64,000 nt of DNA from Schmidtea polychroa (Eukaryota), in the NCBI GenBank assembly GCA_044892525.1, contig CM097885.1, positions 69,130,001 through 69,194,000 of the forward strand, written 5' to 3'. The position numbers and the translations under genes were made by a program. Within the stretch, counting starts at the first letter, position 1, and every line of letters begins with the position of its first letter. This document shows positions 1,400-59,909 of this stretch, piece after piece. Under the pieces are notes generated by a model. It was not told the DNA's origin. It searched no databases and worked only from the letters and a program-made list of their open reading frames with translations.

Positions 1400-2509
1400 T
1401 GTTAGATGATGAGGGTAGGTCCATCACTACATTTAGCTTAAATAAATATTATAATACTGGGCCCAAAAAATATAGAATCAATGTGTGCGCTGAAGAGCGT
1501 AGGTAAATCAAATAGCCCAATTCCCCAACAATCCAATGCATCAAATAGCAACCAACAATTCAATTCCTCAATCAAATTCATCAAATGATGACAATAACTT
1601 CTGTGTGATGAATTAACATTGACCTATTCATTTTTCATTTTGTAGTATATCTTATTGACATTATTCTATGTGCCCTATTTATTTTATTTGTGTGACATTT
1701 TGTGTGTTTCTAACTTTATTTTTATTTTTATTTGTAATTGTATCGGTAAACACAAAAAAATAAATATATATATATAAAGGGTAAATTTATTAGTTTTATA
1801 AAAGAACAATTAAAATTATTAAAAAAAAAATTATTAATATGAAAATTAATTAGTTCTACAAAATAATAATTATAAAACATCTGTTAAAAGAAAATTCTTT
1901 TTTTTAAGCATAAGAACACTTGAAATATAAAAATAATAATTTAAGTGTTTTAAATAAATCCATTGAGTACACATATAAAAATAATAACAAATTATTCTTG
2001 AAAATAATAACACTTGATAATAGAAAATAATAATAAATTATTTTAAGTATTCTTGAAAATAATAAATCTTGATTTTATAATAATAGAAAATAATAATAAA
2101 TTATTTTAAGTATTCTTGAAAATAATAACTCTTGATTTTATGTCTAAAAAATTAATATAAATAGCGATACAAAATTCATTTTGTTCGCCCAAAAATAGCG
2201 CAACGATTTTATATTCGAAGGTAAATCCTGAGGATAATTCAATCATTTGAATCAGCACAAAACGATTCACAAATAGTAAAAGCTTACGAAGACACAACAC
2301 GCACACACAACAAATAACAATAAACATACTTTCTTTTGCACGCATTTCAGTTGGAGAATTTAACAAACGAGTATCGATTGTTCAGAATTGTAATTGGATT
2401 ATATTTGGTAAATTTTACTTTCAATAAACCTTTATATACGTCTTTATTTGTTTTGTTATATATATAAGAACCAGTAAGTTGAGTGTTCCCGAATATCGAG
2501 ACCTCAACA
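1400..2509 (+). repeat. 5' LTR
   Basis: TGTTAGATG...CCTCAACA. Matches 14335-15444 at offset 12935, with two substitutions seen by eye (1420/14355, 2012/14947). Internal ~55-60 bp AT-rich triplication at about 1990-2140. Confidence 0.97.
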
Positions 2510-2511
2510 TT

Positions 2512-2529
2512 TGGTGCCGCGAACCGGGA
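2512..2529 (+). promoter_or_regulatory. Primer-binding site TGGTGCCGCGAACCGGGA
   Basis: Starts with TGG 2 nt after the LTR end. Complementary to a tRNA 3' end ...UCCCGGUUCGCGGCACCA; resembles tRNA-Phe-type PBSs, but the tRNA identity is not confirmed. Confidence 0.8.
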
Positions 2530-2748
2530 CTTTAAAATCAATTATTGTTATTCACAATTTGGGGGATAGGAATTGAGATCAGAGGGTATAGTATTTTATA
2601 TTGGGAAAATATATTTATAAAAACAATATCATTGACCAATTTTTAAATAAATAAATTCAGTTTTGAAAATTATTAAATAATTCAAAAAGATAAAATAGAT
2701 AATCAACCCGAAATAGTTTATAATCTCAGAAATAGAATAGTCTATAGG

Positions 2749-5700
2749 ATGAATAATAATAATAATAATTACATAAAAATTTTACCAGTAGAACCATATA
2801 GAGGAGAGCCTGAAAAGTTCGACGATTTTTTCACTGAGATCGCTCAGTATGCAGAAGCTTGTGGTTGGACACCTGATGAATTAAAAATGAGAATCCCATT
2901 ATACTTAAAAGGCTATGCGTTACAGGCATACAATAACTTAGAGTGTAAAGGGAATAATTTTGATCAACTCGTAAGATATCTGAGAGCAGAAATAGTAATC
3001 GATAGCGATTTACAAAAGATAAATGTTCAAAAATTTAGAAACAGATATCAGGGTACTAGAGAATCAGTTGGTGAATATGTATATACAATTACGGAGTTAG
3101 CGAAAAAGGCATTTGGTGCAGGTGAGCACACAGCAAAATTAATTGAGGATCAGTTTTGGAATGGTATACAAAAATATTTATATAAAGCACTAATTATGGT
3201 AGAATATGGTAATTTAAACGAATTAGTTCATAAAGCTAAGCGTATAGAAGCAATACAACGAGATAGATTTAGTTCACATGTAGATGCAATGGAAATCCAA
3301 AAACCCATAGAGGTAAAATCTGAGTTGGGTAAGTCAGATGACAACATCCCCTGGGAGGAGATGAAACAACTATATTTGAACTTTGTAAAAAATAGACGAA
3401 GGGTAAGCCCGAGTCCAGATAGAAGTCAATCGCCTGAAAACAGGAGAAGGTTTGACAATGTGAGAAATAGAAATTTTGAGAATAGAAACAATAGAAATAC
3501 TTTCGATAGAGACAATCGTTATGAATATAATAGAAATAATTATACGAGAGATAATAGAGTCGATTTTAGTAGAAATAATTTGAGAAATAATAAATATGAT
3601 AGAAATAATAGACATGATAATAGAGATAATACAAATGAAGTGAGACGTAGACAGACAAGTCCATATAGACAGAATTCATACAGAGAAAGGCGAGGGAGCC
3701 CTTATAATAATGATGGTAGAGATAAAGTAAATTTTAATGGACAGATCAAATGTTATAATTGCCAAAAATATGGTCACTTAGCTAAAGTATGTAACAATGC
3801 GCGAAGCGAATCGCCTAATAGAGTGAGATTTAAAAATGAGCCTGAGATAAAACAGATTAATAGTGCTGAGTTGATATCAGCTAATGATGAAATAAACAGT
3901 TTGAGAGAGGAACTAAAAGAATTTAAAACTCAATATGGGAGACTTATTGAGAGAAAGTTAGAAATGTCATTAAATGAGTTTCAGTGTTTTACCAATGATG
4001 TAGATATAGATAATGATGAGTTTCGTGAAGCAAGAGAAGCGGATGAGAAATTTCTTGCAGAAACAAATAGATGTAAAGAGTTAAAAGAAGAATTGAAAGA
4101 GACATTAGAAAAATGGCCTTATGATGATAATGAGACATTGCGTATAATAAATAGAGTTCAAGTCGAAGGAATTGACTTAGAATATGTGAGAAATTTGATA
4201 CCACTAATGGTAAAGAGACAAAATATGACAAGAGTATTTGAATTAGAAATAGAATTGAAAGAAATGATAAAATGCTATGGTGAATTTGTGAGAAAAAATC
4301 AGAAATTACATGAGTCATTAAATATAACTATTGAGGCAAAGGACCTTTCGAGAATACTTATGCGTAGTACAGGGGTACATGTTTGCACAAAAGTGAATAA
4401 AGTGAAACAGATGGCCAGAGCAAATTGGCCCGAAAAATTGGGAGATAATGATAAAGTGAAACTGTATTTTAACGGCGTAGAAATGATGAATAATGAATAT
4501 ATAATTGACTATGGAGTAAACGTCATTGATAACAATATTATTTCTGCAGTAATAGAAAGGCAAGAAAGTAAACAAGTGGATACACCAACTCCATCAGTAG
4601 AATTGAGTATAAACGATGAAAATGACTACGACAAATTATTTAGATTGTGGGATGCTTCTTCAGGAGGGGCAATGAGGTCACCAACAGCTAGCGAGGAAAT
4701 CTTTAAACCTATAGATACTAAATATGATAATTTACATGAGACAATAGAAAAAATTGCGAAACAAGCAAATATGCAGGATGCAGAGACGATGAGACGAGGT
4801 AGGGGAAGGCCTCGAAAATCGGAAATAGCCGAAAAGTCAGATGACAGAAAGGCAGCAGAGCGTTTAAGAGATATTGCAAATAATATGAGACAGGAAGTCC
4901 CAAAAAATCAGGATAATGACAAAGATATAAAGATGATAACTGAGTTAGTTAAAGCAATGAATATGAGACGATTTCCGGAAGCAAAACCATCAGCGTTAAT
5001 AGAAAATATAGTTAAAAAGATTAAATTAATGGAAAAAGAGATTAGAGAATTGAGTGCAGAGGAAGCAAATGAAGAGACAGTGTTAAAGATATTATTTACA
5101 ACAGGAGTTAATCGAGATAAAGTGATTACGGCAATGGCATACTTAATAGCAAGATACAAGAAACTTTTGCGATTGAATCCAAAGAATCAAATAGAAAATA
5201 TCGCTAAAATGATATATAATAAATTAAAGATAGATGCTATGCCATGGATAAAATTAAAGGGAGGATGGAAAATACTGTATGATGAGAGTCTAATAGAAAG
5301 TGCTCAGGAAAGCGTAGAAGATAATATTAATGTAGAAATAGATGATACGGAGGAAACAGTAAAAAATCTAGTAAATAAAACAACTATGAAACCAAGTCAA
5401 AAAGAAAGAAAGTCGACAATGTCAATAGTAATTATAGTAATAACATTGTTATTAGATCTGATAAAAGGGAATAATGCGATCATAGCGTATGACTGTCAGA
5501 ATCCTAAGTGGGGACAGAAATATTCATTATTAGATGTAGAAAATTGCCCAGAGGCTAATCCAACAAAACTAATTGTTGCAGATCCAAAGATTTTTCACAT
5601 ATATCAAGAGTCTGACTTCATTCACACTGAGGCAGGAGAATGTATCGTTAAATATTCAGAGGAAAGTTTTGTATGTAATAAAATAGCGAGAACAATATTA

Positions 5701-8700
5701 ACTCCAACATGGGCACCAGAAGCGATAATAATAGCACCAATCGAATGCGAAAATGCATTTAAAACAAAAAAGATAAAAACGCCGGATGGATTTGAGTTAA
5801 ATGCTCAGGTAGGAGCACGAGTAAGGCAATTAGTAAATGTCGTTGGATGGTCATCAATAGGAGGATATTGTGAAGGAGGAACATATAAAATATGGGGGCA
5901 CGTAGCAGACAATATTGTAGTAAGACGACAATATTATATTGAATTAAGGAAATTCAAGGCGTCATTTGATAGTTCATCAAAGAAAATGATGACACATAAG
6001 TTCTGTACATTAGATGAGACCAGCTGCGATACAGGTGAGTCAATGATCATATACAAGGTAAATAAATACGAATGCCACCTAACTAAACTAAAGACACTGA
6101 AATTCAGAACGATACGAGGTAAACAGTTCACGGATGTAGATTCCAAGAATATCAAAGACCAAAAACGACGAGCAACGATAATTCAAGAGAGAGATACCCC
6201 AACAATATACATGTCAGATTCTGAAACAGAGGCGATGAGGTTTGTGGGAAAAGGTGAAAGTATTAAATGTGGTAAGGCAGTCATACAAACAAATTACGAG
6301 GGAATTTATATCAGCGGAAGTGAAATTAAAGAGGCAAAATCAAGAATAGATAAATTCGATGTCAAGCTAGCGTCATATTTTAATAATAAAATCGACTACT
6401 TTTATCATCATCAGTTAGTACAATTGGACAAAGTATATCAAGCAACTATTGCAAACGATTGTAAACTTAACAGAGAAATTTTAAGAACAAAGATGGCGGT
6501 TGCAGTCACAAACCCAGATTTAATGGCACCAATTTTATTTGCAGAAAAAGGGACATTTGCAAGAGTTGTCGGTGAAGTGATACAAACATTTCAGTGTAAA
6601 CCGGTTAGCGTATCTTTAGCAACAAATAGTAAGTGCACAAACGAACTACCAGTAGTATATAAAGGAGAAACGGTGTATCTCCAACCAATAACAAGGATAT
6701 TAACAGATAAAGACTATGTCCCGAGAAAAATCGATAAATGTACAAATCTATTAGATCCGTTATACAAAATAAATGATGATATGTGGATTACAATGTCAGA
6801 TAGAAAGGAAGCAACTAAACCACAAAAACTAGAACTAACTGAACTTGAGAAAAAGTTAGAATTTCAGGAAGTCAACGAAATGGATAACAATGGGATGTAT
6901 ACGAGAGAGGCGATAGAGAGCGCCAGAAAACATATGTTATTTCCTCATGAAAAAGAAAAAGTTCTTTCTATCATGGTAAACAAAATCATCGAAAATAGTT
7001 ATGGAGGGAATTACAACTTTGATGTATTATTATCAAAAGAGCACTTCAAGAAAGTTGTGTATAGAGTATTATACAGCATATGGGGATATTTTGCGATTCT
7101 CGGAAATACGTTTTCCACTATATTGGGTATATATTATACAGTAGCACTATTGAAAATGATTTGCTCATCATTAGTTTCGTTAAGACAACTGAGACAAGTT
7201 TTTGGTAATTCATATAAAATGATAGCATGTTTATGTCCATTCATAGCCAAATATTTGATCACTGCGAGGCACGATAAGGAAATCAAACGGATGAAAAGTC
7301 GAAGGGAAGAGGGTGAAATAATGATCACCAATGAAAAAGAGGACGATACAAACAGATCAGAAAATATTGAGCAACCACATATTGGGTTATATGATAATCA
7401 AAGAGAACAATTGACAGAATTAAGAAATAATATTGAAATAAGAATCCCAGGTGAAAATGGTAATTGTCATGGTGTTCCAAGGAAAACTTATGGATGTTAC
7501 GGGTTAGAACTTGACGATATATTAGAAGGGTTAAATGAAGCAAGGCCTAAATTACAAATAGTGATAAATGATACGATAATAAAGGCATTATGTGACACAG
7601 GAGCAGCAGCTTCTATGATTCGTGAAGATCAGTTAACCGGAAACCAAAAGAAAAATATTGTGAGCACAAGAGATAGAGTAATTTCATTATCATCACATTA
7701 CATACCATTAAAAGGAGATATCGAATTAACAGTCCACTTTTCGGATCAAGTGGTTGAACATGTCTTCAAGGTAGTAGCAGAATGTAAATGCGTATGTGTC
7801 CTTGGGATGGACATACTCAAAAAGTTAAAAAACTGTGTAATCGATTTAACGGATAGTACAGTCAAACGGAAGGCAATATATCAAGACGCAAGATTTACTG
7901 AGGTAATTGCATTAGAGACATTTGAACTAGAGTATCAAAGTGATCATATAATTCCAGTAAAAGTTAATGTTAAAAGTGAGGACACTTTCATTTTCGAGCC
8001 TGAAACGGCAATATCACGAAATCATAACGTAATGTTAACAGACGAGTGTGTAATTCCAAATAATGGGATAATTCCAATAAGAATCGCGAATTACGAAAGA
8101 AATAAAGTAAAAATTCATAAAGGTACAAAATTGGGAAAGTTGTTCAAAGGTGAATTAGAGCAAACATTTGAAGTATGTGAGATGTCGATGACGAAGGATG
8201 TCAGTGAAAGAATGGTCGAACAGAGTAGAGCGAATAATATCAAATTTTATGATAAAATTAAAATAAATAATAATTATCTAAATGAAACACAACAACTACA
8301 ACTACAAATATTACTTGACGAATACAGTGATGTTTTTGCAAAACACGAATTTGATTTAGGAGATACTGACATTATCAAACATGTAATCGATACAGGGAAT
8401 GCTAGACCAATAAAACAGAGACCCTATAGTGTACCATATAAACTGAGGGAGGAAATAAAACGACAAATTAAAGAATTAAAAGAGGCAGGCGTAATAAAAC
8501 AAAGTTTTTCACAATGGACATCACCTATCGTACCAGTTAGAAAGAAAGACGGGGAAATTCGAATGTGCATTGATTATCGTAAATTAAATGATGTAACAGT
8601 AAAAGACTCATACCCATTCCCAAAAGCACAAGAACAATATGATAAACATAGAGATACTAAATATTTCACAGTAATAGATGCAAATAAAGGCTACATGCAA

Positions 8701-9363
8701 ATTCAAATGGAAGAGGGGGATGCGGAAAAGACAGCTTTTGTGATAGAAGACGGTTTATATGAATATACAAGATTACCTTTTGGGTTAACTAATGCGCCAG
8801 CAACATTTCAACGTTTAATGAATACAGTATTAGTAGACGTACAACATTGCGCAGTATATATGGATGATATATTAATTTCATCAAAAACATTTGAGGAACA
8901 TCTAAAAGATATAGCTAACGTACTAGAAAGATTAAGAAAAGCAAAAATCAAAATAAAACCCACTAAGTGTAAATGGGCAGAACCTTCAGCATTATTCTTA
9001 GGACATATAGTTACAGTAGATGGTATAATACCTAATCCCGATAAAATTGAAGTAGTTAAAAAATTCCCAGTTCCAAAAACATTACAACAAGTACAGGGAT
9101 TTTTAGGTCTCACAGGATATTATCGTAAATTCATACAAGATTATGCAAAAATAGCAGCACCACTAATTGAATTAACGAAAGGAGTCAAAACAAAGGGAGA
9201 GAGTAAAGGAGTGTTAATAGTGCAGGAAATTAACGATAAAATTAACAAGCCACAAAAGAAATGGAAAGATGAACATCAAAAAGCTTTTGATCAACTAAAA
9301 GAAAAATTAATAACAGCACCGATACTAAGATACCCAGACAAAAATCAAAATAAAACCCACTAA
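2749..9363 (+). CDS. Polyprotein part 1: Gag (CCHC at 3751-3792), AT-hook, Bcl-2-like domain, envelope glycoprotein, aspartic protease, RT; truncated by a duplication-induced frameshift
   Basis: CYNCQKYGHLAKVC; RRGRGRPRK; LFTTGVN...PWIKLKGGW; hydrophobic segment then AYDC...YSLLDVENC; TM near 7063-7180; ALCDTGA (7585-7605); LPFGLTNAPATFQRLM and YMDD (8857-8868). Confidence 0.93.
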   Translation: MNNNNNNYIKILPVEPYRGEPEKFDDFFTEIAQYAEACGWTPDELKMRIPLYLKGYALQAYNNLECKGNNFDQLVRYLRAEIVIDSDLQKINVQKFRNRYQGTRESVGEYVYTITELAKKAFGAGEHTAKLIEDQFWNGIQKYLYKALIMVEYGNLNELVHKAKRIEAIQRDRFSSHVDAMEIQKPIEVKSELGKSDDNIPWEEMKQLYLNFVKNRRRVSPSPDRSQSPENRRRFDNVRNRNFENRNNRNTFDRDNRYEYNRNNYTRDNRVDFSRNNLRNNKYDRNNRHDNRDNTNEVRRRQTSPYRQNSYRERRGSPYNNDGRDKVNFNGQIKCYNCQKYGHLAKVCNNARSESPNRVRFKNEPEIKQINSAELISANDEINSLREELKEFKTQYGRLIERKLEMSLNEFQCFTNDVDIDNDEFREAREADEKFLAETNRCKELKEELKETLEKWPYDDNETLRIINRVQVEGIDLEYVRNLIPLMVKRQNMTRVFELEIELKEMIKCYGEFVRKNQKLHESLNITIEAKDLSRILMRSTGVHVCTKVNKVKQMARANWPEKLGDNDKVKLYFNGVEMMNNEYIIDYGVNVIDNNIISAVIERQESKQVDTPTPSVELSINDENDYDKLFRLWDASSGGAMRSPTASEEIFKPIDTKYDNLHETIEKIAKQANMQDAETMRRGRGRPRKSEIAEKSDDRKAAERLRDIANNMRQEVPKNQDNDKDIKMITELVKAMNMRRFPEAKPSALIENIVKKIKLMEKEIRELSAEEANEETVLKILFTTGVNRDKVITAMAYLIARYKKLLRLNPKNQIENIAKMIYNKLKIDAMPWIKLKGGWKILYDESLIESAQESVEDNINVEIDDTEETVKNLVNKTTMKPSQKERKSTMSIVIIVITLLLDLIKGNNAIIAYDCQNPKWGQKYSLLDVENCPEANPTKLIVADPKIFHIYQESDFIHTEAGECIVKYSEESFVCNKIARTILTPTWAPEAIIIAPIECENAFKTKKIKTPDGFELNAQVGARVRQLVNVVGWSSIGGYCEGGTYKIWGHVADNIVVRRQYYIELRKFKASFDSSSKKMMTHKFCTLDETSCDTGESMIIYKVNKYECHLTKLKTLKFRTIRGKQFTDVDSKNIKDQKRRATIIQERDTPTIYMSDSETEAMRFVGKGESIKCGKAVIQTNYEGIYISGSEIKEAKSRIDKFDVKLASYFNNKIDYFYHHQLVQLDKVYQATIANDCKLNREILRTKMAVAVTNPDLMAPILFAEKGTFARVVGEVIQTFQCKPVSVSLATNSKCTNELPVVYKGETVYLQPITRILTDKDYVPRKIDKCTNLLDPLYKINDDMWITMSDRKEATKPQKLELTELEKKLEFQEVNEMDNNGMYTREAIESARKHMLFPHEKEKVLSIMVNKIIENSYGGNYNFDVLLSKEHFKKVVYRVLYSIWGYFAILGNTFSTILGIYYTVALLKMICSSLVSLRQLRQVFGNSYKMIACLCPFIAKYLITARHDKEIKRMKSRREEGEIMITNEKEDDTNRSENIEQPHIGLYDNQREQLTELRNNIEIRIPGENGNCHGVPRKTYGCYGLELDDILEGLNEARPKLQIVINDTIIKALCDTGAAASMIREDQLTGNQKKNIVSTRDRVISLSSHYIPLKGDIELTVHFSDQVVEHVFKVVAECKCVCVLGMDILKKLKNCVIDLTDSTVKRKAIYQDARFTEVIALETFELEYQSDHIIPVKVNVKSEDTFIFEPETAISRNHNVMLTDECVIPNNGIIPIRIANYERNKVKIHKGTKLGKLFKGELEQTFEVCEMSMTKDVSERMVEQSRANNIKFYDKIKINNNYLNETQQLQLQILLDEYSDVFAKHEFDLGDTDIIKHVIDTGNARPIKQRPYSVPYKLREEIKRQIKELKEAGVIKQSFSQWTSPIVPVRKKDGEIRMCIDYRKLNDVTVKDSYPFPKAQEQYDKHRDTKYFTVIDANKGYMQIQMEEGDAEKTAFVIEDGLYEYTRLPFGLTNAPATFQRLMNTVLVDVQHCAVYMDDILISSKTFEEHLKDIANVLERLRKAKIKIKPTKCKWAEPSALFLGHIVTVDGIIPNPDKIEVVKKFPVPKTLQQVQGFLGLTGYYRKFIQDYAKIAAPLIELTKGVKTKGESKGVLIVQEINDKINKPQKKWKDEHQKAFDQLKEKLITAPILRYPDKNQNKTH
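5479..7180 (+). other. Envelope/fusion glycoprotein domain inside the polyprotein, chuvirus/Monjiviricetes G-like (class III)
   Basis: Preceded by a signal-like segment (MSIVIIVITLLLDLIKGNNA). N-terminal AYDC...SLLDVxxC motif, Cys-rich ectodomain of about 530 aa, C-terminal TM (FAILGNTFSTILGIYYTVALL). Family assigned from remembered motifs. Confidence 0.75.
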
Positions 9364-9736
9364 GTGTAAATGGGCAGAACCTTCAGCATTATTCTTAGGA
9401 CATATAGTTACAGTAGATGGTATAATACCTAATCCCGATAAAATTGAAGTAGTTAAAAAATTCCCAGTTCCAAAAACATTACAACAAGTACAGGGATTTT
9501 TAGGTCTCACAGGATATTATCGTAAATTCATACAAGATTATGCAAAAATAGCAGCACCACTAATTGAATTAACGAAAGGAGTCAAAACAAAGGGAGAGAG
9601 TAAAGGAGTGTTAATAGTGCAGGAAATTAACGATAAAATTAACAAGCCACAAAAGAAATGGAAAGATGAACATCAAAAAGCTTTTGATCAACTAAAAGAA
9701 AAATTAATAACAGCACCGATACTAAGATACCCAGAC
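8943..9736 (+). repeat. 397-bp tandem duplication in the RT/connection region (8943-9339, 9340-9736)
   Basis: CAAAAATCAAAATAAAACCCACTAAG at 8942 and 9339. Antisense ORF starts at 9113 and 9510 differ by 397. 397 is not a multiple of 3, so the duplication shifts the frame. Confidence 0.95.
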
Positions 9737-11746
9737 TTTAAAAAACAGTTTATTGTCATGACAGACGCCAGCGGGAAGGCCGTAGGGGCAGTCTTAGGAC
9801 AAGAAGAGGAAAAGGGTAAAGATTATGTAATAGCTTATGCAAGCAAAACATTAAAAGGAGCACAGATTAGGTACTCAACAATTGAGAAAGAACGTTATGC
9901 TATAGTTTTTGCATTAAAACAATTTAAACCATACATATATGGAACTGAAGTAGTAATTAGAACAGACCATAAGCCATTAGAAGGGTTATGGAAACATAAA
10001 GATACATCCAGTAGACTGTTAAAATGGGCAATGAAAATACAAGACATGCACATAAAGATTGCATACAAACCAGGTAGAATAAACAGGAATGCAGATGCAT
10101 TATCACGAATTCCAGAGTTAGGAGCACTAGAAGTTTTTGCATTAGTAACTGAAAAACCAATAGAAATATATGAGGAACAAATGAAAGATCCAGAACTCTT
10201 CAAGATAAGAGAAGAAATAAAAAAGGGAACTAACCAAAAATATAAAATCTGTAAGAAGTTAATTGTTATTGAGGATTTTAGCGGTAAACAATTAATAGTA
10301 GTACCACAAAGATTAAGACAAATTCTTCTATTACAATATCACGATGGTGCTTTAGGAGGTCATTTATCAAGTAGGAAAACAGCAAGCAGATTGATGCAAA
10401 AATATTATTGGGACGATTTGAAAAAGGATGCCAAGAGATGGTGTAATGCATGCACAATATGCGCAACTAGAAAAAATACAGGAACAAAAACTAAAGCACC
10501 TTTACATCCAATCCCAGCTACAACATCACCAATGGAATTGTGCGCAATGGATTTTTTGTGTAAACTACCCACAACAATTAAGGGGAATAAGCACATACTA
10601 GTTTTTAGCGATTATTTTACAAAATGGGCAGAGGCATTTCCTACAAAAGATGAAACAGCAGAAACAGTAGCTAAATTACTTGTGGAAAAAATAATCTTTA
10701 AAATCGGTACACCGAGAAAATTATTAACAGATAAAGGGAAAAATTTCATGAGTGAAACTATAAAAAGAGTAGCTAACATATTTAACATGCATAAAATCAA
10801 CACAACAGCATACCACCCTCAGACCGATGGTTTAGTAGAGAGGTTCAATGGGACATTGCTAAGTAGATTAGCTGTGTTTGTGGGAAAAAACCAAAATGAT
10901 TGGGATGAATACGTTAACCAATGTACATACATCCATAATATCACACCAAATGAGACAACGGGATATTCACCATATTTTCTAATGTTCTTAAGAGAGCCGG
11001 CGACACCGATTGATACAATTTTTGAGCCTCGAGTATCACAATATTTAGATGCGCCAGATTATGTAACATTAATGCAAGAGAGATTACAAGAGGTATACAA
11101 GGTTGCAAATTTAAAAGTTAAATTCAGACAAGAACAATATAAAGCAGATTACGATAAAAATAGCAAACCTCATAATTTTAAAGTGGGAGATAAGGTTAGA
11201 CTTATGTCTCCACAAGTAGGAAAAGGCAAAACAACTAAATTAGCAAGACCATTTAAAGGACCATACGAGGTAGTAAAAGTAATACATGAAAACCTGCATT
11301 TACAAAAACATAAAAATGAGGATCCTATAATAGTACATGTTAACAGATGCAAATTAGCAGAAACAGAGTTAGTAGAAAAACCACCTCACAAATATGGATT
11401 ACGATCGCAAAAAGCACTGATGATGGCAGCGACATTTTTAACAATTATAGGGTTGTGTAAATCAACTGAAGTGGAAAACGAAAACATACACTCAGTAGAA
11501 TACATGGCTGAAGATATTTTAATCAACATTTCACCATATAAAATTAGAGTATATAACTTAAATAAATCACCAATAAGAGACTTGTATCTGGAAACTAGGG
11601 ATAATATACCCAAACTTATGAAAAAAATTGAAAATAGATCAACTAATGAATTTGAAAGAGGGGATAATGTTGAATTCGGAAATCTACAACCCAACACTAA
11701 TTACACACTTTGTGCACAATGGAATACATTAGTTGACACATCATAG
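9608..11746 (+). CDS. Polyprotein part 2: RNase H, integrase (HHCC, DDE, GPY), then signal-like segment and FN3-like domain
   Basis: VMTDASGKAVGAVL, TDHKPL, NADALSR; H...GGH...CNACTIC; MDF, TDKGKNF, VERFNGTL; FKGPYEVV; YGLRS followed by ALMMAATFLTIIGLC and GNLQPNTNYTLC. Confidence 0.93.
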   Translation: MLIVQEINDKINKPQKKWKDEHQKAFDQLKEKLITAPILRYPDFKKQFIVMTDASGKAVGAVLGQEEEKGKDYVIAYASKTLKGAQIRYSTIEKERYAIVFALKQFKPYIYGTEVVIRTDHKPLEGLWKHKDTSSRLLKWAMKIQDMHIKIAYKPGRINRNADALSRIPELGALEVFALVTEKPIEIYEEQMKDPELFKIREEIKKGTNQKYKICKKLIVIEDFSGKQLIVVPQRLRQILLLQYHDGALGGHLSSRKTASRLMQKYYWDDLKKDAKRWCNACTICATRKNTGTKTKAPLHPIPATTSPMELCAMDFLCKLPTTIKGNKHILVFSDYFTKWAEAFPTKDETAETVAKLLVEKIIFKIGTPRKLLTDKGKNFMSETIKRVANIFNMHKINTTAYHPQTDGLVERFNGTLLSRLAVFVGKNQNDWDEYVNQCTYIHNITPNETTGYSPYFLMFLREPATPIDTIFEPRVSQYLDAPDYVTLMQERLQEVYKVANLKVKFRQEQYKADYDKNSKPHNFKVGDKVRLMSPQVGKGKTTKLARPFKGPYEVVKVIHENLHLQKHKNEDPIIVHVNRCKLAETELVEKPPHKYGLRSQKALMMAATFLTIIGLCKSTEVENENIHSVEYMAEDILINISPYKIRVYNLNKSPIRDLYLETRDNIPKLMKKIENRSTNEFERGDNVEFGNLQPNTNYTLCAQWNTLVDTS

Positions 11747-11941
11747 ATAAGGTGCAAAAGACTAAAAACTACTAAAATAAATAGACTTAGAATAAGAAAA
11801 CCAAAAAGAAAGAAGATATCAACAACCAGAAAAACAACTACTATAAATTCAACACCCACACATCCTATATCATAAACGATAACGAATATATATAGGAAAA
11901 CGACATTTAAAGCGGTTAGACAAATATATAAAAAATTAATA

Positions 11942-12250
11942 ATGAAAAATCCAAGACAGTCTGATAGGAAACTGATAAAATTACCTACAGGAAAACCGAT
12001 AGTTATAAATAACTGGAATGAATTACAAGTATTTCAAAAGAAAGCAAGCAAACCACAATGGCCTTTTTATATAATAGCTACAAGTGTAGTATCATTCGCG
12101 ATTTTAGCAATTGTCACTAGTGTACAAGTTTATAAAAAGTACAAGTGGAAAAGGCAGCGGTATCGGCACCGACTGGTCAAAGAAGCACCAGGGCATTTTC
12201 ACTTGGACAAATATATCCCTGGACAATATACTCTGTCCACACTGGTATAA
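11942..12250 (+). CDS. Transmembrane-domain ORF in the integrase frame; probable C-terminus of a second membrane protein
   Basis: WPFYIIATSVVSFAILAIVTSVQVY followed by basic KKYKWKRQR. Same frame as 9608-11746, separated by only two stops (TAG 11744-11746, TAA 11873-11875). Confidence 0.6.
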   Translation: MKNPRQSDRKLIKLPTGKPIVINNWNELQVFQKKASKPQWPFYIIATSVVSFAILAIVTSVQVYKKYKWKRQRYRHRLVKEAPGHFHLDKYIPGQYTLSTLV

Positions 12251-12284
12251 TAACTTAAAAAATTTTAATTACATAAATTGGTCA

Positions 12285-14441
12285 ATGATATATAATAAAA
12301 GTATATATATTAATATTTATATAACTGCGTATAAGGTTAAACCTCAAATGCGCAACAAGCATAAATATTTATTATTTGTTTTTAGAATAGTAATAAGAAG
12401 TTTATCGAATCAATTCAGTCAAATCAATCCCCAAATAAATCAGTCTAATCAAATCGATCCTCCAATAACCCAAAATCAAATCAGCCAATCTAATCAATCC
12501 AATCGTCTTCATTCAAACAAATCAATGCACCCACATACGTCAGTTCACATGCATTCTCAAAGAGCAAAACCTCAGCGAAATCCTGAAACTCAGAAAATAA
12601 GGCAATACGTGCCGATGTTACAGAAACACTACCACAGTTTCTATAAAAACCTGCAAAATAAGATCAGTACAGATGGTACTCCCATTACTATTAGAAGTTT
12701 CCCCAACCAAGTATGCATTCCTAATGATATGAAAATTGAGATAGAAGAAAGGGAATTGCATCTCATCAAATTCAACGAAGCAAGAAGAGTCAAATTAAGA
12801 GAATTAATCGGAGCGTATGACAAATTCCCCAATGCAGAGGAGGCTGCAAGAGCTGGAAAGAAAGTGCCCCATAGAATTTTATTTCACATCACAAAAACAG
12901 AGGTAGCAATATGCCAACAAAGGATACCATTAATCACCACGAGCAATTGCACCATAACAATAAAAACTACAAAAAATGATCGGAGTGTCCCAAACGACTA
13001 CAATGAATTGATAGTCCAAATGAACAGCCTACCCTGTGTCATAGCGATCGAAATATTATACATACCCACGATCCCAAATCCATTTCAGCAGTTGGAACTC
13101 ATTAAATCAAACATTTATATGCATGGAGATTTCATCAGAAGAAAAATGTCATTTACCCACAAAGAATTATCCACGGCGGAGAGACATCATCTGATAATGT
13201 TTGTAGATGCAAAATTAGTATGCGACATCAACAATAACTTAAGGCCAGTAGAGGTCAGCATACGGAATTTTAAGGGTGTAACAATATTTGATGAGAAAAT
13301 TACACCTAGAACGAAAATCCTACATTATTATCCAGAGAAGACAAAGGCCAATAAGGAAAATATCATCGGGAATAAAGATGAATACGAAGCACTGGTCGAA
13401 ATCCAACAGTTACTTTGCGGAAAAATAGTCGTAGGATTCGACATCATTGGAAAACTCAAAGCTCTCACATTAGATCTCTATAATGTTATGGGAGTTAGAG
13501 AAATGTCGGAAGATATATTTATGTGCTCGTACGTCAAAAACGTTGCGCCACACAAGATAAAATTGTCCAACCTGGCATACCAGGTAATCAGACATCACAA
13601 AAGGTGGGACAAAGATAAACGCATAAATAGAATGCTGCGTGAACCCGAACCATTTCCAGCATGGCAAACCACGATGATCGTCAAAGTGATATATGCAATT
13701 GTAGAAAATCAATGGGAAGAAGTTGTTAAATGGGACTCAGAAGCCTTCAGTGAACAACAAATAAAAGATCAGTTATATCCCATTAAAGAAAGTAGTCTGG
13801 AGGATATGTCGGGCGATGAAGAAGACATTTATATAGAACCATCGCAAATCGAATTGAAATTTAATAAAGACGGGACACGCAGGACTTTCGAAAATGAATT
13901 AATGGAAAGCGATGACGACGTAATATTCATCGAAGAGGAGAAAATACGAATGCCTGAAGCAACAGTCAAACTGGAATTACAGGAACCAAAATTCCATCCA
14001 GGAAAACTAATGGAATGCGACCTCGACTCTGATGAGGAATACTTCTCAATCAACGAGCAAGAGGAGGAAAATACGGATATAGACGAATTGGGACCGGAAC
14101 CAGATATCGCAATCGAGGAGGAACCCAATTTTATCATACCCAAGGAGAAGGAGCAGATTACAGAAAAGGAATTGACCCGACATTTTGGAAGGCGTATAAA
14201 TGATGGCGACACATTAAATCTCGCATTGGCAAAAGGCTTCAGCAAAACGAGAATGCTGATAAAAGATAATGAAATCGAGCTGGTACGTAGTGAAAGAGAT
14301 AATGCGGACATTATCTTAACGGCCCAGGGAGGAATGTTAGATGATGAGGGTAGGCCCATCACTACATTTAGCTTAAATAAATATTATAATACTGGGCCCA
14401 AAAAATATAGAATCAATGTGTGCGCTGAAGAGCGTAGGTAA
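12285..14441 (+). CDS. Accessory ORF with a REX4/ISG20-like DEDDh exonuclease fold (about 13190-13700, catalytic residues degenerate) and acidic tail; start uncertain (first ATG 12285)
   Basis: FVDAKLV...VEVSIRNFKGVTIFDEKITP...IQQLLCGKIVVGFDIIGKLKAL...KIKLSNLAYQVI is colinear with the REX4/ISG20 consensus. The last 107 nt lie inside the 3' LTR. Confidence 0.72.
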   Translation: MIYNKSIYINIYITAYKVKPQMRNKHKYLLFVFRIVIRSLSNQFSQINPQINQSNQIDPPITQNQISQSNQSNRLHSNKSMHPHTSVHMHSQRAKPQRNPETQKIRQYVPMLQKHYHSFYKNLQNKISTDGTPITIRSFPNQVCIPNDMKIEIEERELHLIKFNEARRVKLRELIGAYDKFPNAEEAARAGKKVPHRILFHITKTEVAICQQRIPLITTSNCTITIKTTKNDRSVPNDYNELIVQMNSLPCVIAIEILYIPTIPNPFQQLELIKSNIYMHGDFIRRKMSFTHKELSTAERHHLIMFVDAKLVCDINNNLRPVEVSIRNFKGVTIFDEKITPRTKILHYYPEKTKANKENIIGNKDEYEALVEIQQLLCGKIVVGFDIIGKLKALTLDLYNVMGVREMSEDIFMCSYVKNVAPHKIKLSNLAYQVIRHHKRWDKDKRINRMLREPEPFPAWQTTMIVKVIYAIVENQWEEVVKWDSEAFSEQQIKDQLYPIKESSLEDMSGDEEDIYIEPSQIELKFNKDGTRRTFENELMESDDDVIFIEEEKIRMPEATVKLELQEPKFHPGKLMECDLDSDEEYFSINEQEEENTDIDELGPEPDIAIEEEPNFIIPKEKEQITEKELTRHFGRRINDGDTLNLALAKGFSKTRMLIKDNEIELVRSERDNADIILTAQGGMLDDEGRPITTFSLNKYYNTGPKKYRINVCAEERR
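14326..14334 (+). promoter_or_regulatory. Polypurine tract AGGGAGGAA
   Basis: All-purine run directly abutting the TG of the 3' LTR. Confidence 0.75.
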
Positions 14442-15444
14442 ATCAAATAGCCCAATTCCCCAACAATCCAATGCATCAAATAGCAACCAACAATTCAATT
14501 CCTCAATCAAATTCATCAAATGATGACAATAACTTCTGTGTGATGAATTAACATTGACCTATTCATTTTTCATTTTGTAGTATATCTTATTGACATTATT
14601 CTATGTGCCCTATTTATTTTATTTGTGTGACATTTTGTGTGTTTCTAACTTTATTTTTATTTTTATTTGTAATTGTATCGGTAAACACAAAAAAATAAAT
14701 ATATATATATAAAGGGTAAATTTATTAGTTTTATAAAAGAACAATTAAAATTATTAAAAAAAAAATTATTAATATGAAAATTAATTAGTTCTACAAAATA
14801 ATAATTATAAAACATCTGTTAAAAGAAAATTCTTTTTTTTAAGCATAAGAACACTTGAAATATAAAAATAATAATTTAAGTGTTTTAAATAAATCCATTG
14901 AGTACACATATAAAAATAATAACAAATTATTCTTGAAAATAATAACTCTTGATAATAGAAAATAATAATAAATTATTTTAAGTATTCTTGAAAATAATAA
15001 ATCTTGATTTTATAATAATAGAAAATAATAATAAATTATTTTAAGTATTCTTGAAAATAATAACTCTTGATTTTATGTCTAAAAAATTAATATAAATAGC
15101 GATACAAAATTCATTTTGTTCGCCCAAAAATAGCGCAACGATTTTATATTCGAAGGTAAATCCTGAGGATAATTCAATCATTTGAATCAGCACAAAACGA
15201 TTCACAAATAGTAAAAGCTTACGAAGACACAACACGCACACACAACAAATAACAATAAACATACTTTCTTTTGCACGCATTTCAGTTGGAGAATTTAACA
15301 AACGAGTATCGATTGTTCAGAATTGTAATTGGATTATATTTGGTAAATTTTACTTTCAATAAACCTTTATATACGTCTTTATTTGTTTTGTTATATATAT
15401 AAGAACCAGTAAGTTGAGTGTTCCCGAATATCGAGACCTCAACA
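14335..15444 (+). repeat. 3' LTR
   Basis: Direct repeat of 1400-2509; followed by ATTA. Confidence 0.97.
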
Positions 15445-15448
15445 ATTA

Positions 15449-16625
15449 TATGCGATTTGAGTGTCATTGAAGGACAAATGCTTAATGTGCAGTAGGAAGG
15501 TCATTCATTTAGAAGTTGTAATTTGTTTGCAAAATGAAGAAGTAATATTCAAAGACCGGAAGAAGAGTCTATTATATACACGAAGAAGACGACGATAGAT
15601 CAGAAGAATTGATAGAACCAGTCATGTATAATGTTTAAAGAGAAAAAACCAAGAAGACCTGATGTTTACATTTCGTCAGTAGGGTCGAGACAGTAGATGA
15701 GTATAAACAACGAAATGTTGTAATAAAGGATGTGATGTTTAAGAAGGATGATGATAGGAAGTAGAGTGAGATGGAAATAAATGAATTTTATATTAAAATG
15801 ATATGGGATTCAGGAGCTTCAATCAGTGTGACGAGTGAAAAATGTTGGAGATTGATTGGCAGTTCAACATTGATGGAAAGCAGAGTACGGTTGAGTCGAG
15901 TATTTTCAAAAGAAGACGAGAAACCTCTCGGAAGCGTAAATATCGTTGCAAAATGGAACAACAAATGTCGAGAATTGAATGTTATTATTGTCAGAAAAAT
16001 TCATCCAGATTTCATAGGAAGGGTAGACACCATGAGCATATTTGACATGGAGCTTAAAGAAGTCAATAATATTGATGCCGCATTGGTTACTAAGAGATTT
16101 ACAAATTCTGATCGGTTAGAGTTTGCGTTATCGAAGCTCAAGTTGGACAGGAATTCGAAGTTGGGTACTTTAATATCTAAGTTTAGCAACATTTTTATGG
16201 TATCCAGTTTTGACTTTGGTCATACAAAAGTAATAACACATGAAATAACGACTTCAGGTACTCCGATTTTACAAAATCCCAGAAGACAAGCCATACATTT
16301 AGAAAGCAAAATTGAAGAGTTAGTAGAGAATTTATTAGAAGCTGGAGTTGTGAGAAAATGTCAAAGTCCGTGGAACACACCACTTGTGATAGTTGGAAAA
16401 CCAGATGGTTCTATAAGAATGTGTTTAGATTTTAGGTTATTGAATTCAGTGACAGAAAAGTTTTCATTTCCGATGCCAGGCATGCCGTTGTTATTGGATT
16501 GTCTCGGTAAGTCAAAAATATTTTCATCAATTGATTTAGGTCAGGCCAATTATCAGGTAGAGTTGCATGAAAATTCCCAAACCAAGACGGCATTTAGTAC
16601 AAAAGAGGGACAGTTCTGTTTTATT
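15449..16625 (+). pseudogene. Host gypsy gag end, protease and truncated RT
   Basis: Degenerate second knuckle (CLMCSR..GHSFRSC, frameshifted), IWDSGASIS protease motif, RT N-terminus (SPWNTPLV, MCLDFRLLN, SIDLGQANYQV, TAFST); breaks off before YxDD. Confidence 0.88.
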
Positions 16626-16969
16626 TATTACGTTGGATATAATAAATATACTTTATTTGTTAATTGTTATTATGATTTGTGAAGAAATATATATGAAAGT
16701 TTTCCCACTTGCAACCCACCAGTATTTACATTTTATGTATCCATTAAAACTAAATCAGTAATAAAGTTTCATTTCAAAACGATCCAAAAATTACTGAGTT
16801 TTTAATTCAGTATTATTGAAAAAAACATTCCATATTTTGAGACGTTTGAGAAAAAAAACTCTATTATTAAAATCTGAAACATTGAATGTTTTTAAAATTA
16901 TTAAATATTAACAAGCGATCTGCCATATTATAGTTACCATTATAGTTACCAGCCAAAGAGTTGCACCAG

Positions 16970-32288: not shown

Positions 32289-34413
32289 CCGTAATTTCCG
32301 GTCTATAAGTCGCGGTTTTTTTCAGACGCTGACGGTGCTGCGACTTAAATAAAGGAGCGACTTATATAATAAGTTTAATCACGGGCCGTTTCTATAATAA
32401 ATCTAAATGTAATCAACAATTTGTGACTGTACTGTCTTTGATGAACTGATAATTGATGCCGTGGTTATCAAAGGCCCTTTTTGTAATATGATACAATCAT
32501 AAACCATCACCATCATTATAATATATCTAAGACGCCATATAGCCTATTTCGTAAACCAAGCTTACAGGATGTCTAGGCTAGGCGAACTGCCGCCATGTTG
32601 GCGTGTCAGTTTAACTGCCGATCTGATTGGTCATTTCGGACCCTGGATCCGAAATTTGAGAGCCCATCAAACAAATGTCAGCTTTAATCACCAGATGGCA
32701 GTGTATATAAGACCGCTGTAATAGATTTCCTGTCAAAACAATTTAATTTTTTAAATTAAAATATACCGAAAGTTTAGTGCAAAATGAGTTCCAACAAAAC
32801 AAGGAAATCGTACACTGCCGAGTTTAAGCTGCAAACTATCAAATTTGCTGAGGAAAACGGCAATCGAGCGACTGAGCGGCGATTTAATATTAGTGAAAAA
32901 CTAGTTCGAGACTGGCGAAAATCAAAAGATGCGCTGTTGCTGACAAAAAGAATCAAGCGGGCGAATCGAGGTCATAAAGCAAGATGGCCAGGACTGGAAA
33001 ATCAGCTTTCTAAGTTTATTGTGGAGCAGCGAGCTCAAGGTCGCGGAATATCAACCGTCCAAGTTCGTCTTAAGGCCAAAGAAATAGCGAATGATCTGGG
33101 AATTGATGAATTCATTGGTGGACCATCTTGGTGTTTTCGTTTCATGAAGCGCCAGCAGCTCTGCATCAGATCAAGAACGATCATGTGTCAACAACTGTCT
33201 GCTGACTACATCGAAAAAATCCGGAATTTTCGTGAATTCATTTATTCAAAAGTCGCGAAATATGAAATCATTTCAGATCATATTATCAACATGGATGAAG
33301 TTCCACTCACCTTCGATATTCCTCTGGGCCGAACTCTCAATAACAAAGGTGAGAAAACGATCAACATAAGAACAACTGGCCACGAGAAATCGCACTTAAC
33401 GGTCGTGCTGTCATGCTGTGGTGATGGAAGGAAGCTTCCTCCAATGATAATCTTCAAAAGGAAAACCATGCCAAAAGAGGCATTTCCCAACAACGTGATC
33501 ATTCAAACCAACGCAAAGGGATGGATGGATGAAGAAATGATGAACATATGGTTGGAGAGATGTTTCAAAAAGAGGCCTGACGGATTCTTCAAAACTAAAA
33601 AGGCATTGCTCGTAATGGACAGTATGCGAGTTCACATCACAGAGAACATAAAAACGAAAGTTAAAGGCAACAACTCGATTCCTGTCATTATACCAGGTGG
33701 TCTGACGAAGGTGCTACAGCCTCTGGATATTTCTGTCAACCGAAGTTTCAAGGTCCATCTGCGTCGTTTGTGGGAAAGATGGATGACCAGCGGTGAACAT
33801 AGCTTTACGGCAACAGGTCGCATGCGTCATGCCACCTTTGCGGAAGTGGCCAAATGGGTGGTCGAGGCATGGGATAAATTGAATCCGGCGATTATCACCA
33901 GTGGATTCAAGAAAGCGGAAATCTTACTGGCAGACAATGATGACAACGACGACTCTGATAGCGATGATGATGATGACAACTATGAACTGACTGTACCAGA
34001 TGAAATTGCTCAATTATTTGAAAGCGATACTGAAGATGAAGGCATTAATGGATTTAATGGATTTACAGACTCTGATTTTTATTGATAAACTTAACTTCAT
34101 TAAACGACATTTATAACTTAGGCATTTCGTTTTATTGATATAAATAATCTCTCTATAAATTAAAAAGAAATATTCCACGTTATTAAATACTTGCGCTAAA
34201 TGATTTTTGTTCTCACCTCTTCTCTTTAGTGTCTTTAATTAAACTTGGCGACCACCACCGAACAAAGTAAACATTACCGCAGAGGCATGCTTATTACTGT
34301 ATAAGTGCGACTTAAATAACGGAGCGACTTATATATTAATTTTTCCAAAATTTTAGCCATTTTTTACAATTGCGACTTGTACACAGGAGCGACTTATTAC
34401 CCGGAAATTACGG
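32289..34413 (+). mobile_element. Intact pogo-superfamily DNA transposon (DD35D, Passer/POGK-like)
   Basis: TIRs CCGTAATTTCCGG...CCGGAAATTACGG extending imperfectly to about 25 bp, TA TSD (32287-32288, 34414-34415), repeated GCGACTTA subterminal motifs. Confidence 0.95.
32784..34085 (+). CDS. Pogo transposase, 433 aa (Brinker-type HTH, CENP-B HTH, DDE_1)
   Basis: RKSYTAEFKLQTIK, WCFRFMKR, NMDEVP, VMDS and QPLD with 35 residues between the second and third Asp; acidic tail; no stops. Confidence 0.95.
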   Translation: MSSNKTRKSYTAEFKLQTIKFAEENGNRATERRFNISEKLVRDWRKSKDALLLTKRIKRANRGHKARWPGLENQLSKFIVEQRAQGRGISTVQVRLKAKEIANDLGIDEFIGGPSWCFRFMKRQQLCIRSRTIMCQQLSADYIEKIRNFREFIYSKVAKYEIISDHIINMDEVPLTFDIPLGRTLNNKGEKTINIRTTGHEKSHLTVVLSCCGDGRKLPPMIIFKRKTMPKEAFPNNVIIQTNAKGWMDEEMMNIWLERCFKKRPDGFFKTKKALLVMDSMRVHITENIKTKVKGNNSIPVIIPGGLTKVLQPLDISVNRSFKVHLRRLWERWMTSGEHSFTATGRMRHATFAEVAKWVVEAWDKLNPAIITSGFKKAEILLADNDDNDDSDSDDDDDNYELTVPDEIAQLFESDTEDEGINGFNGFTDSDFY

Positions 34414-48780: not shown

Positions 48781-48919
48781 AAATAAACTTAGAAACTGAA
48801 TTATTAATTTTGGGATTCCCCAGTAGGTAGATAGTGGCCTACGGCAGCAATGACCCCCCCCATGGGGGGGGGGGGGTTCTGCTGCCGTAATTTTTTTGCT
48901 GCAACTTTTGATTACGCAA

Positions 48920-50200
48920 TTTTTCAGACTATAGTGAGGGGGTCTCGATGGTCCTGGGATTTTCAATGCAAAAAAAATTTTTTCTATACAAAAACGATGG
49001 TCCTGGGATTTTCAATACAAAAAAAATTTTTCTATACAAAAATCCGACTACCACTAAAAAAGCATGGAATTTTCACACTATAGTGAGGGGGTCTCGATGG
49101 TCCTGGGATTTTCAATGCAAAAAAAATTTTTTCTATACAAAAACGATGGTCCTGGGATTTTCAATACAAAAAAAATTTTTCTATACAAAAATCCGACTAC
49201 CACTAAAAAAGCATGGAATTTTCACACTATAGTGAGGGGGTCTCGATGGTCCTGGGATTTTCAATACAAATAAAATTTTTTCTATACAAAAACGATGGTC
49301 CTGGGATTTTCAATACAAATAAAATTTTTTCAATACAAAAAGGCGGTCTCACTAAAAAAGCATGGAATTTTCAGACTATAGTGATGGGGTCTCGATGGTC
49401 CTGGGATTTTCAATACAAATAAAATTTTTTCTATACAAAAACGATGGTCCTGGGATTTTCAATACAAAAAAAATTTTTCAATACAAAAAGGCGGTCTCAC
49501 TAAAAAAGCATGGATTTTTCAGACTATAGTGAGGTGAGTCTCCTTGGTCCTGAGAAATAGGTGGTCTACACTAGAAAAATGTGGTAATTTAAGGTCTCAG
49601 GATATTTTCAATACAAAAAGCTGGTCTACACTAAAAAAGCCAAGGATTTTTCAGACTATAGCGAGGTGAGTCTCCTTGGTCCTGAGAAATAAGGGGGTCT
49701 CGATGGACCTGGGATTTTCAATACAAATAAAATTTTTTCTATACAAAAATCCGACTACCACTAAAAAAGCATGGAATTTTCACACTATAGTGAGGGGGTC
49801 TCGATGGAACTGGGATTTTCAATACAAATAAAATTTTTCTATACAAAAATCCGACTATCAATAAAAAAGTCAAGGATTATTCACACTATAGTGAGGGGGT
49901 CTCGATGAACCTGGGATTTTCAATACAAATAAAATTTTTTCTATACAAAAATCCGACTACCACTAAAAAAGCCAAGGATTTTTCAGACTATAGTGAGGGG
50001 GTCTCGATGGTCCTGGGATTTTCAATACAAAAAAAATTTTTCAATACAAAAAGCTGGTCTACACTAAAAAAGCATGGTAATTTAAGGTCTCAGGATATTT
50101 TCAATACAAAAAGCTGGTCTACACTAAAAAAGCCAAGGATTTTTCAGACTATAGTGAGGTGAGTCTCCTTGGTCCTGAGAAATAGGTGGTCTACACTAAA
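48920..50200 (+). repeat. Modular tandem array (149-bp main period, with 60-70 bp variant modules); mirrored at about 62440-63780
   Basis: Recurrent ACTATAGTGAGGGGGTCTCGATGGTCCTGGGATTTTCAATACAAA; repeat-derived ORF starts at 49064 and 49213 differ by 149. Confidence 0.9.
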
Positions 50201-50214
50201 AACGTGGTAAATTT

Positions 50215-50610
50215 TTCAATTAAAGTAAATAATGGTCCAAATTTTAAAATTAAAGTAAATTATGGTTCTAAAAATTAAATTATAGTAAATTATGGCTCAA
50301 ATTTTTAAATTACAGTAAATTATGGTCCTAAAAATTAAATTACAGTAAATTATGGTCAAACATTTTAAATTAAAAAAAACAATGGTTCAAATTTTTCAAA
50401 TACAGTAAATTATGGGTCTAAAAATTAAATTACAGTAAATAATGGTTCTAAAAATTAAATTAAAGTAAATTATGGTTCTAAAATATTAAATTACAGTAAA
50501 TTATGGTCCAGATTTTTCAATTAAAGTAAATAATGGTCCAAATTTTTAAATTAAAGTAAATTTAAGTTCTTAAAAATTAAATTACAGTAAATAATGGTCC
50601 AAATTTTTAA
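50215..50610 (+). repeat. ~30-bp tandem array (AAATTACAGTAAATTATGGTCC...); mirrored at about 62030-62420
   Basis: About 13 degenerate copies visible. Confidence 0.85.
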
Positions 50611-50999
50611 ATTAAGTAATCAATGGTAAAAAATTTTAAATAAGTAAATTAAAGTAATAATTTTTAAATTAAGTAATCAATGGTAAAAAATTTTAAATAA
50701 GTAAATTAAAGTAAGATTTTAAAATTTAATTACAAAATAATAGAAGGTGTTTGAGAATTGAAATTTTTTAATGAAAATTTTTATGAAATAATTTTTAAGT
50801 AATTTTTAATAGAAATTTTAATGAAATATTTTTCAATGGTAATTTTTAATGGAAATTTTTATGGAATAATTTTTTAAGTAATTTTTAATGTAAATTTTTA
50901 TGAAATATTTTTCAATGATAATTTTAGATGGAAATTTTTAAGATAATTTTTAATGAAAATTTTTATGAAATATTTATCAAAGACAAATTTTAATAATAA

Positions 51000-52420: not shown

Positions 52421-52726
52421 GCAGATGACCACATGAAATTATTGGTTAAATATGAAAATAAGGGTTATAATTAGTTGTTAAGTAAATTATGGTGTAAAAT
52501 TAAGAAATAAAGAATAATTAGGTAAATTAAAGTAATAATTTTAAAAAAGTAAATTAAGGTTCAAATTTTAAATTAAATAAGTAAATTAAAGTAATAATTT
52601 TTAAATAAGTAATGTACTAAGTAAATTAAACTAAGATTTTTAAATTTATTATCAAAAGATTGAATAACAACCAACTTTTTTGAGAAATGTAATTTATAAT
52701 GAAAATTTAAATGGAAATTTTAATGG

Positions 52727-52758
<32 letters not shown>

Positions 52759-59877: not shown

Positions 59878-59909
<32 letters not shown>

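Follow-up and report, generated by a model that had tools for sequence, protein, structure and literature searches.

The planarian element Burro has Gag, BCL2, env, protease (PR) and reverse transcriptase (RT) domains in one open reading frame (ORF) (Arkhipova and Yushenova 2019, PMC6431247; in their accessible text PMC8532177 and PMC11410931 mention Burro without domain detail). GAG-ENV-POL elements with an ENV of the glycoprotein B (gB) type are described in nematodes, bryozoans and flatworms by Chary and Hayashi (eLife 2026, PMC13524379), who also report that ENV precedes POL in nematode endogenous retroviruses and that the ectodomains have a transmembrane (TM) domain on either side (two TM). 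Here we describe an element with long terminal repeats (LTRs) in a stretch of 64,000 nucleotides of Schmidtea polychroa (GCA_044892525.1, contig CM097885.1, positions 69,130,001 to 69,194,000; "the window", in whose numbering all positions are given). It spans 1400-15444 (~14 kb), with its coding features, LTRs and priming sites on the + strand. The most probable account, in our view, is that it is a broken recent copy of a flatworm GAG-ENV-POL Ty3/gypsy element whose polyprotein would cross the membrane four times. An initial annotation of this sequence had presented the Gag-Env-Pol order as unusual. That order is already published for Burro and for the elements of flatworms, nematodes and bryozoans; what seems to have been overlooked is a second membrane protein after integrase (IN) and a degenerate exonuclease.

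Copies of the Env region were scored for the best 40 of 305 candidates, so that the genome holds at least 40, and all 40 carry this region at 96-100% identity. The 39 copies other than that of the window were examined as 10-kb stretches, each junction being counted only in the copies that span it. One open frame runs through the gag-to-linker junction in 33/33 sisters, through the Bcl-2/signal/Env junction in 30 of 38, through Env, TM and PR in 32 of 38 and from PR to RT in 35 of 37. Therefore the position of Env between Gag and PR, and with it the Gag-Env-PR-RT order, is a family trait. A secondary insertion of Env, which the initial annotation had named as an outcome that would overturn its reading, was rejected. 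The perfect duplication in the window copy, possibly an artefact in its own right, could speak for an Env inserted later or misassembled at this one locus, but the region is present in every scored copy, the junctions are in frame in most sisters and the order recurs in other families and in database proteins, making this explanation vanishingly improbable. Furthermore, the integrase-to-second-signal junction is open in 28 of 30 sisters and the stretch from ectodomain to second TM is open past 11746 in 26 of 30. Because these 26 read through, the window copy has a second lesion in its stop at 11744-11746. The 2866-aa ORF obtained in the initial annotation by removing the duplication was too short: in four of the 29 sisters that contain both ends the frame is uninterrupted from the Gag ATG to its close, at 3029-3034 aa, and runs past IN to a second TM (12068-12124). 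In the family a single ORF of ~3,030 aa (Gag-linker-Bcl-2-like-signal-Env-TM-PR-RT-RNase H-IN-signal-ectodomain-TM-tail) is accompanied by a downstream ORF with an exonuclease fold.

Internally deleted derivatives (L015, L096, L072 and L074) were also found. Two of them, from different families, are without RT, RNase H (RH) and IN and retain Env and the second membrane protein. Two share one deletion fusing Gag-Bcl-2 to the region of the second TM (TM2) and the exonuclease; with one deletion in two copies, the derivative must therefore have been copied.

In the window copy an ORF without stops at 2749-9363 (2204 aa) encodes zf-CCHC, AT-hook-like, Bcl-2-like, Monjiviricetes_fusion, aspartic protease and RT domains, and a second ORF (9329-11746) encodes RH and IN. 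The frame is broken inside RT/RH by a perfect 397-bp tandem duplication (8942-9736), as had been noticed initially. It was found in 0 of the 33 sisters covering the unit and is private to this copy. It may be either biological or an assembly artefact; four sequencing runs, taken as contigs, covered 29-30 of 30 bins, with depth reduced over 9016-9516. Among the public runs listed as containing the element none was of RNA. Pfam and motif evidence bore out the domain order of the initial annotation. The polyprotein starts with Gag (2749-3800), which has one CCHC zinc knuckle (aa 333-348, zf-CCHC, E 1e-3). A linker (3802-4989) follows, with an AT-hook-like RGRPRK (aa 686, near 4804) and a weak SUMO-like match (PF11976, E 0.054) that is below the Pfam cut-off and a lead only. 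Against a divergent subfamily copy the ratio of nonsynonymous to synonymous substitution rates (dN/dS) was 0.09 for Gag and 0.13 for the linker. The Bcl-2-like domain (4990-5300) matches PF00452 with E 7e-5, below the curated cut-off; a match to the same family also precedes Env in two other families of the genome and in three database proteins. A single-sequence search of this region against the PDB gave no PDB Bcl-2 match. After Env come the aspartic protease (7531-7830, PF00077, E 8e-7), the RT core (8530-9012, PF00078, E 5e-36) and RH with IN (9737-11200; PF17917, PF17921 and PF00665). All modules are under purifying selection, with dN/dS of 0.03-0.22 wherever dS is unsaturated.

The Env ectodomain (5479-7065) falls within a match to PF24664, Monjiviricetes_fusion (aa 893-1543, E 4e-89). 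An AlphaFold model built from a 90-sequence alignment had a mean predicted local distance difference test (pLDDT) of 89, and Foldseek with this model found glycoproteins of chuviruses at E 2e-38 to 3e-35 (TM-score at most 0.76) and herpes gB (E 1e-14, TM 0.44), so that the chuvirus-like fusion fold of the initial annotation was recovered. As modelled, Env is a chuvirus-like class III fusogen. In a profile search herpes gB appeared at E 0.002 only, and a single-sequence search of the PDB with Env gave nothing relevant. Among 1.84 billion proteins 1054 relatives were found at E 0.001, and those described here are the best 150 of them. Among the matches listed, those closest to the window Env are long polyproteins in which PR comes after Env, the complete ones adding RT-RH-IN. 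The remoter ones are stand-alone proteins of ~650 aa whose match starts at the AYDC motif, past the signal at their N terminus. In an unrooted tree, with rows chosen by similarity to the window, one branch (100/98) split 14 polyprotein-embedded Envs from 16 stand-alone relatives. The metagenome scan gave two loci. Env ranks with the best conserved modules (88-89% identity between subfamilies; proportion of nonsynonymous differences, pN, 0.06 with the synonymous proportion, pS, saturated), and its cysteines are retained across 90 relatives. Several of the database polyproteins (P0002, P0005, P0014 and P0153-P0157) have two or three aspartic-protease domains, some of them just after the Env TM or before the second signal. 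P0007 (HBK71150.1) is a Gag-Env-Pol polyprotein listed under a Flavobacteriaceae metagenome-assembled genome and is probably animal DNA inside a bacterial bin.

Past integrase, the frame encodes a signal-like segment (signal 2, 11417-11461), a beta-rich domain of ~100 aa and a Ser/Thr-rich stalk (together 11462-12067, with the stop of the window copy inside), followed by the second TM anchor and a basic tail, predicted to be cytosolic, at the natural end of the family ORF (12068-12253; 7 Lys/Arg within 15 residues past the TM). The fold of this second ectodomain appears to be like that of immunoglobulin (Ig) or fibronectin type III (FN3) domains, on weak but consistent evidence: Pfam fn3 at E 0.067, an atlas score of 0.80 (low recognition) and a model of pLDDT 59.5 with its best Z, 6.3, among Ig/FN3 folds. 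Foldseek gave no match at E 0.001. It has a dN/dS of 0.21 and is 61% identical where Env is 88-89% identical. Two sequons are present in it. Homology between the second ectodomains of this genome and those of the distant polyproteins is only suggestive. A profile search of the former against the latter performed no better than shuffled tails, and the comparison of the A2 and P0154 ectodomains was negative; a profile-profile comparison of near and far ones gave E 0.0085 (probability 4.7), and a motif like L-x-P-x-T/S-x-Y is common to five of eight distant ones. A prediction of the complex of Env with the second ectodomain gave no verdict (score 0.00).

The downstream ORF (12108-14441, 777 codons, first ATG at 12285) is open over its 777 codons in many copies (the best 125 of 1248 candidates were scored), and the subfamilies are 60-70% identical in it. 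It has no Pfam match. An atlas groups it with RNase_T/ISG20 clusters (0.93-0.94), and the ISG20/REX4-like fold lies at ~13152-13730. A relative beside another Env family, L096, is 25% identical to it (E 1e-16) and matches ISG20L2 (E 1.5e-9) and ISG20 (E 1.3e-7). L096 retains D-A-E, an acid and H-x4-D; the window exonuclease has D-A-K at ExoI, K in place of the ExoII acid and no H or D at ExoIII. The window family keeps the ISG20/REX4 fold but has lost most of the DEDDh catalytic residues. With pN of 0.19-0.23 and saturated pS the ORF is, by this measure, under purifying selection, and its product may be an RNA-binding pseudo-nuclease. A protein search with the exonuclease gave a single relative, chimeric-looking and of 550 aa. 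In seven copies (L068-L071, L076, L080 and L081) the polyprotein is 97-100% identical and the 3' part divergent (TM2 74-90%, exonuclease 66-69%), which suggests modular exchange. In the divergent subfamily (L072-L075, L085 and L086) the frame of the second TM continues into that of the downstream ORF, and the basic tail persists in another frame. We found no description in the literature of the second membrane protein or of an ISG20-like ORF in such elements; figures, Repbase entries, the Grohme supplement or other supplement rows might hold one.

Four hydrophobic segments are found in the family ORF (5413-5469, ~7066-7176, 11417-11473 and 12068-12124), the first two where the initial annotation had placed them. 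Their topology was judged by hydropathy and flanking charge only. Signal 1 (5413-5478), with a basic n-region and a hydrophobic core, precedes Env in 11/11 long relatives among the matches listed. It coincides with the place where the ~650-aa stand-alone relatives start after their N-terminal signal, in agreement with the internal signal proposed initially. With 5 Lys/Arg before and 1 after, it fits a lumenal location of what follows. The same holds for signal 2 (4 before, 0 after), and TM2 (3 before, 7 after) fits a cytosolic one. The membrane-proximal region and TM anchor of Env (7066-7176) have an equivalent segment in relatives. Pol has to be cytosolic to work, and therefore an odd number of crossings is needed after Env. 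The succession signal-Env-TM-Pol-signal-ectodomain-TM was found in other Env families of the genome, with an Env 40% identical, at 10 of 12 loci (of the other two one ends early and one is broken). Seven of eight database polyproteins extending past IN also have the four segments; P0157 is without this layout and the C-terminal TM of P0016 is less clean, and P0013 and P0018, which end at or before IN, and P0158, a BEL/Pao element, were dropped from the count. Processing of the precursor by signal peptidase is a well supported prediction from these data.

In the favoured account the single ORF would be translated at the endoplasmic reticulum and cross the membrane four times. Gag and the Bcl-2-like domain would remain cytosolic, signal 1 would direct Env to the lumen, where signal peptidase would free it, and the Env TM would bring Pol back to the cytosol, where the protease of the element would release PR, RT and IN. 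Signal 2 would then export the second type I membrane protein, and budding particles would carry the class III fusogen. Probable accessories that modulate the host are the Bcl-2-like domain and the exonuclease, whose catalytic site is degenerate. The output of Gag, Env and Pol would be 1:1, as the initial annotation expected, only if translation is unspliced and unrecoded.

Several observations weigh against this account. The model is known here from sequence, its processing, localisation and expression steps all being predicted. The charges around the Env TM (4 Lys/Arg before, 3 after) are uninformative, and past it there is a third moderately hydrophobic segment, stronger in other families; an even number of crossings after Env would misplace Pol. 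The proposed cut NNA/IIAYDC is homologous in position to A/[IL]xAYDC of the relatives, and to this extent the initial proposal stands. Under the -3,-1 rule an Asn at -3 is atypical for a signal peptidase cut. NNA/IIAYDC has such an Asn, and therefore IKG/NNA is an equal candidate. Env has no N-glycosylation sequon at aa 876-1535, and its relatives have 1-5. The absence of sequons also fits a reading in which the element now moves only within cells, no particles leaving them, and carries Env and the second membrane protein as passengers. There is no evidence of particles, and Env-less derivatives have replicated, one deletion being present in two copies. Against this stand the strong conservation of Env between subfamilies and the retention of its cysteines, and we consider this reading quite unlikely.

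A second alternative accepts the continuous ORF but supposes several RNAs or recoding (splicing to omit Env or to make additional Gag, or termination by frameshift), so that the four-crossing precursor would be minor and the output not 1:1. Excess Gag is known to be made from one ORF, in copia via splicing and in Tf1 via degradation. Some such route is needed for the downstream ORF, whose frame opens within the sequence coding for TM2 in 19 of 20 close and all 4 variant copies, and the internally deleted derivatives that keep Gag might supply structural proteins in trans. However, an Env-skipping joint was absent among 15 of 36 joints, a weak point as these come from contigs and not known RNA. 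Neither the slippery heptamers shared with the divergent copy nor the windows of synonymous-site conservation gave a standout site, with nothing above background. We regard this alternative as unlikely, less so than the passenger reading. A seemingly invariant block of 30 nt (12149-12178, fold z -2.66) was dropped, its synonymous conservation being equal to that of other windows.

Returning to the four-crossing polyprotein, a broader proposal can be made, tentatively and with more doubt than confidence. GAG-ENV-POL gypsy elements might be a broad lineage of retro-transcribing viruses whose single four-crossing polyprotein supplies two envelope proteins. The one ahead of Pol would be the conserved gB-type fusogen; the one that follows integrase, Ig/FN3-like and evolving faster, would serve in attachment or triggering. 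The ISG20-like pseudo-nuclease, a captured protein, would be a decoy that diverts host RNA defence. If true, the two envelope proteins would form an entry system of two components, of which no example is known in retroelements and which recalls the need of herpes gB for partner glycoproteins. The conserved second signal-plus-TM module offers a membrane topology that can be tested and a candidate for the partner of the class III fusogen. It also bears on the cell-to-cell spread of envelope-bearing retrotransposons outside insects, which the accessible text of Chary and Hayashi (PMC13524379) treats as unresolved. The model could be tested with RNA, ribosome-profiling and proteomic data from the host, since the family is young and has many copies.

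The boundaries of the element are clear. Two LTRs of 1110 bp with TG...CA ends (1400-2509 and 14335-15444) differ at 2 of 1110 bases and are flanked by the 4-bp target-site duplication ATTA, directly 5' of the first and directly 3' of the second. For the primer-binding site (2512-2529) the complementary sequence is the 3' end of tRNA-Phe(GAA), and it is found within genomic tRNA-Phe(GAA) genes; a polypurine tract lies at 14325-14334. One locus (L106, G000:C1:34234000-34234900) has tRNA-Phe(GAA) genes in tandem, repeated every 255 bp. In the window itself, Rfam and tRNA scans gave no matches. Pol has the PR-RT-RH-IN order, a gypsy-type RNase H and an H2C2 integrase, without a Pao peptidase A17, and its RT is 50-57% identical in pairwise comparisons to those of the database polyproteins. 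On these structural and Pol features we classify the element as a Ty3/gypsy LTR retrotransposon (Metaviridae). The window copy is a recent insertion, now broken, from a young multi-copy family that has been recently active as a family. It sits inside an older, decayed gypsy element (gag-like at about 365-1234, PR/RT at about 15765-16682). Elsewhere in the window, a 435-codon ORF at 32778-34085 presumably resembles a DDE transposase of the pogo/Tigger type, and 48864-63832 contains a perfect inverted repeat of 6272 bp (49555-55826 / 56810-63081) that has a spacer of 983 bp and arrays resembling satellites, either a fold-back element or an assembly artefact.

Among described systems, the nematode endogenous retroviruses of Sacco et al. 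2022 reportedly have a continuous gag-env-pro-pol ORF, with a different host and different accessory ORFs. Anakin (Dezordi et al. 2020, PMC7642597) has, in its accessible text, a chuvirus-like glycoprotein of the same Pfam family, but on a BEL/Pao backbone and at the 3' end; the element studied here does not have a BEL/Pao Pol with a 3' glycoprotein (compare P0158). The bdelloid LTR elements Juno and Vesta (Rodriguez et al. 2017, PMC5408684) resemble it in a 3' accessory ORF3 with a DEDD exonuclease. As far as that text goes, however, theirs is RNase D-like, of the DEDDy type and with its residues intact, whereas ours is ISG20/REX4-like and degenerate. By the position of ENV, the gB-type fold and its close kinship with Smed_errantivirus_3, the element belongs with the GAG-ENV-POL errantiviruses of the HSV/gB type (HSV, herpes simplex virus). 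A 246-residue Env stretch given for Smed_errantivirus_3 (PMC13524379) is colinear with the window Env, with ~43 differences (~82% identity by eye). The main text of that article, as accessible, describes no post-integrase membrane protein or exonuclease ORF, does not contain the words "polyprotein", "Bcl", "accessory", "fibronectin" or "fused", and gives no primer-binding tRNA for its six Smed elements, which for our element is tRNA-Phe. The likeness to Burro lies in Gag, SUMO-like, BCL2, env and PR in one ORF, the SUMO-like and Bcl-2 matches being here below Pfam cut-offs. Burro, or GYPSM1, of Schmidtea mediterranea exceeds 30 kb and has a 4,873-aa ORF with MATH, BIR and ankyrin domains and 2-3 zinc knuckles, and the accessible part of its description (PMC6431247) does not mention a C-terminal membrane protein, by which description it is set apart. 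In contrast, our element has ~14 kb, ~3,030 aa, one knuckle and no Pfam matches to MATH, BIR or ankyrin. The resemblance of its Env to Schmidtea mediterranea elements and its Burro-like set of domains would by themselves point to a planarian host. It is probably a compact relative of Burro and a close counterpart of Smed_errantivirus_3.

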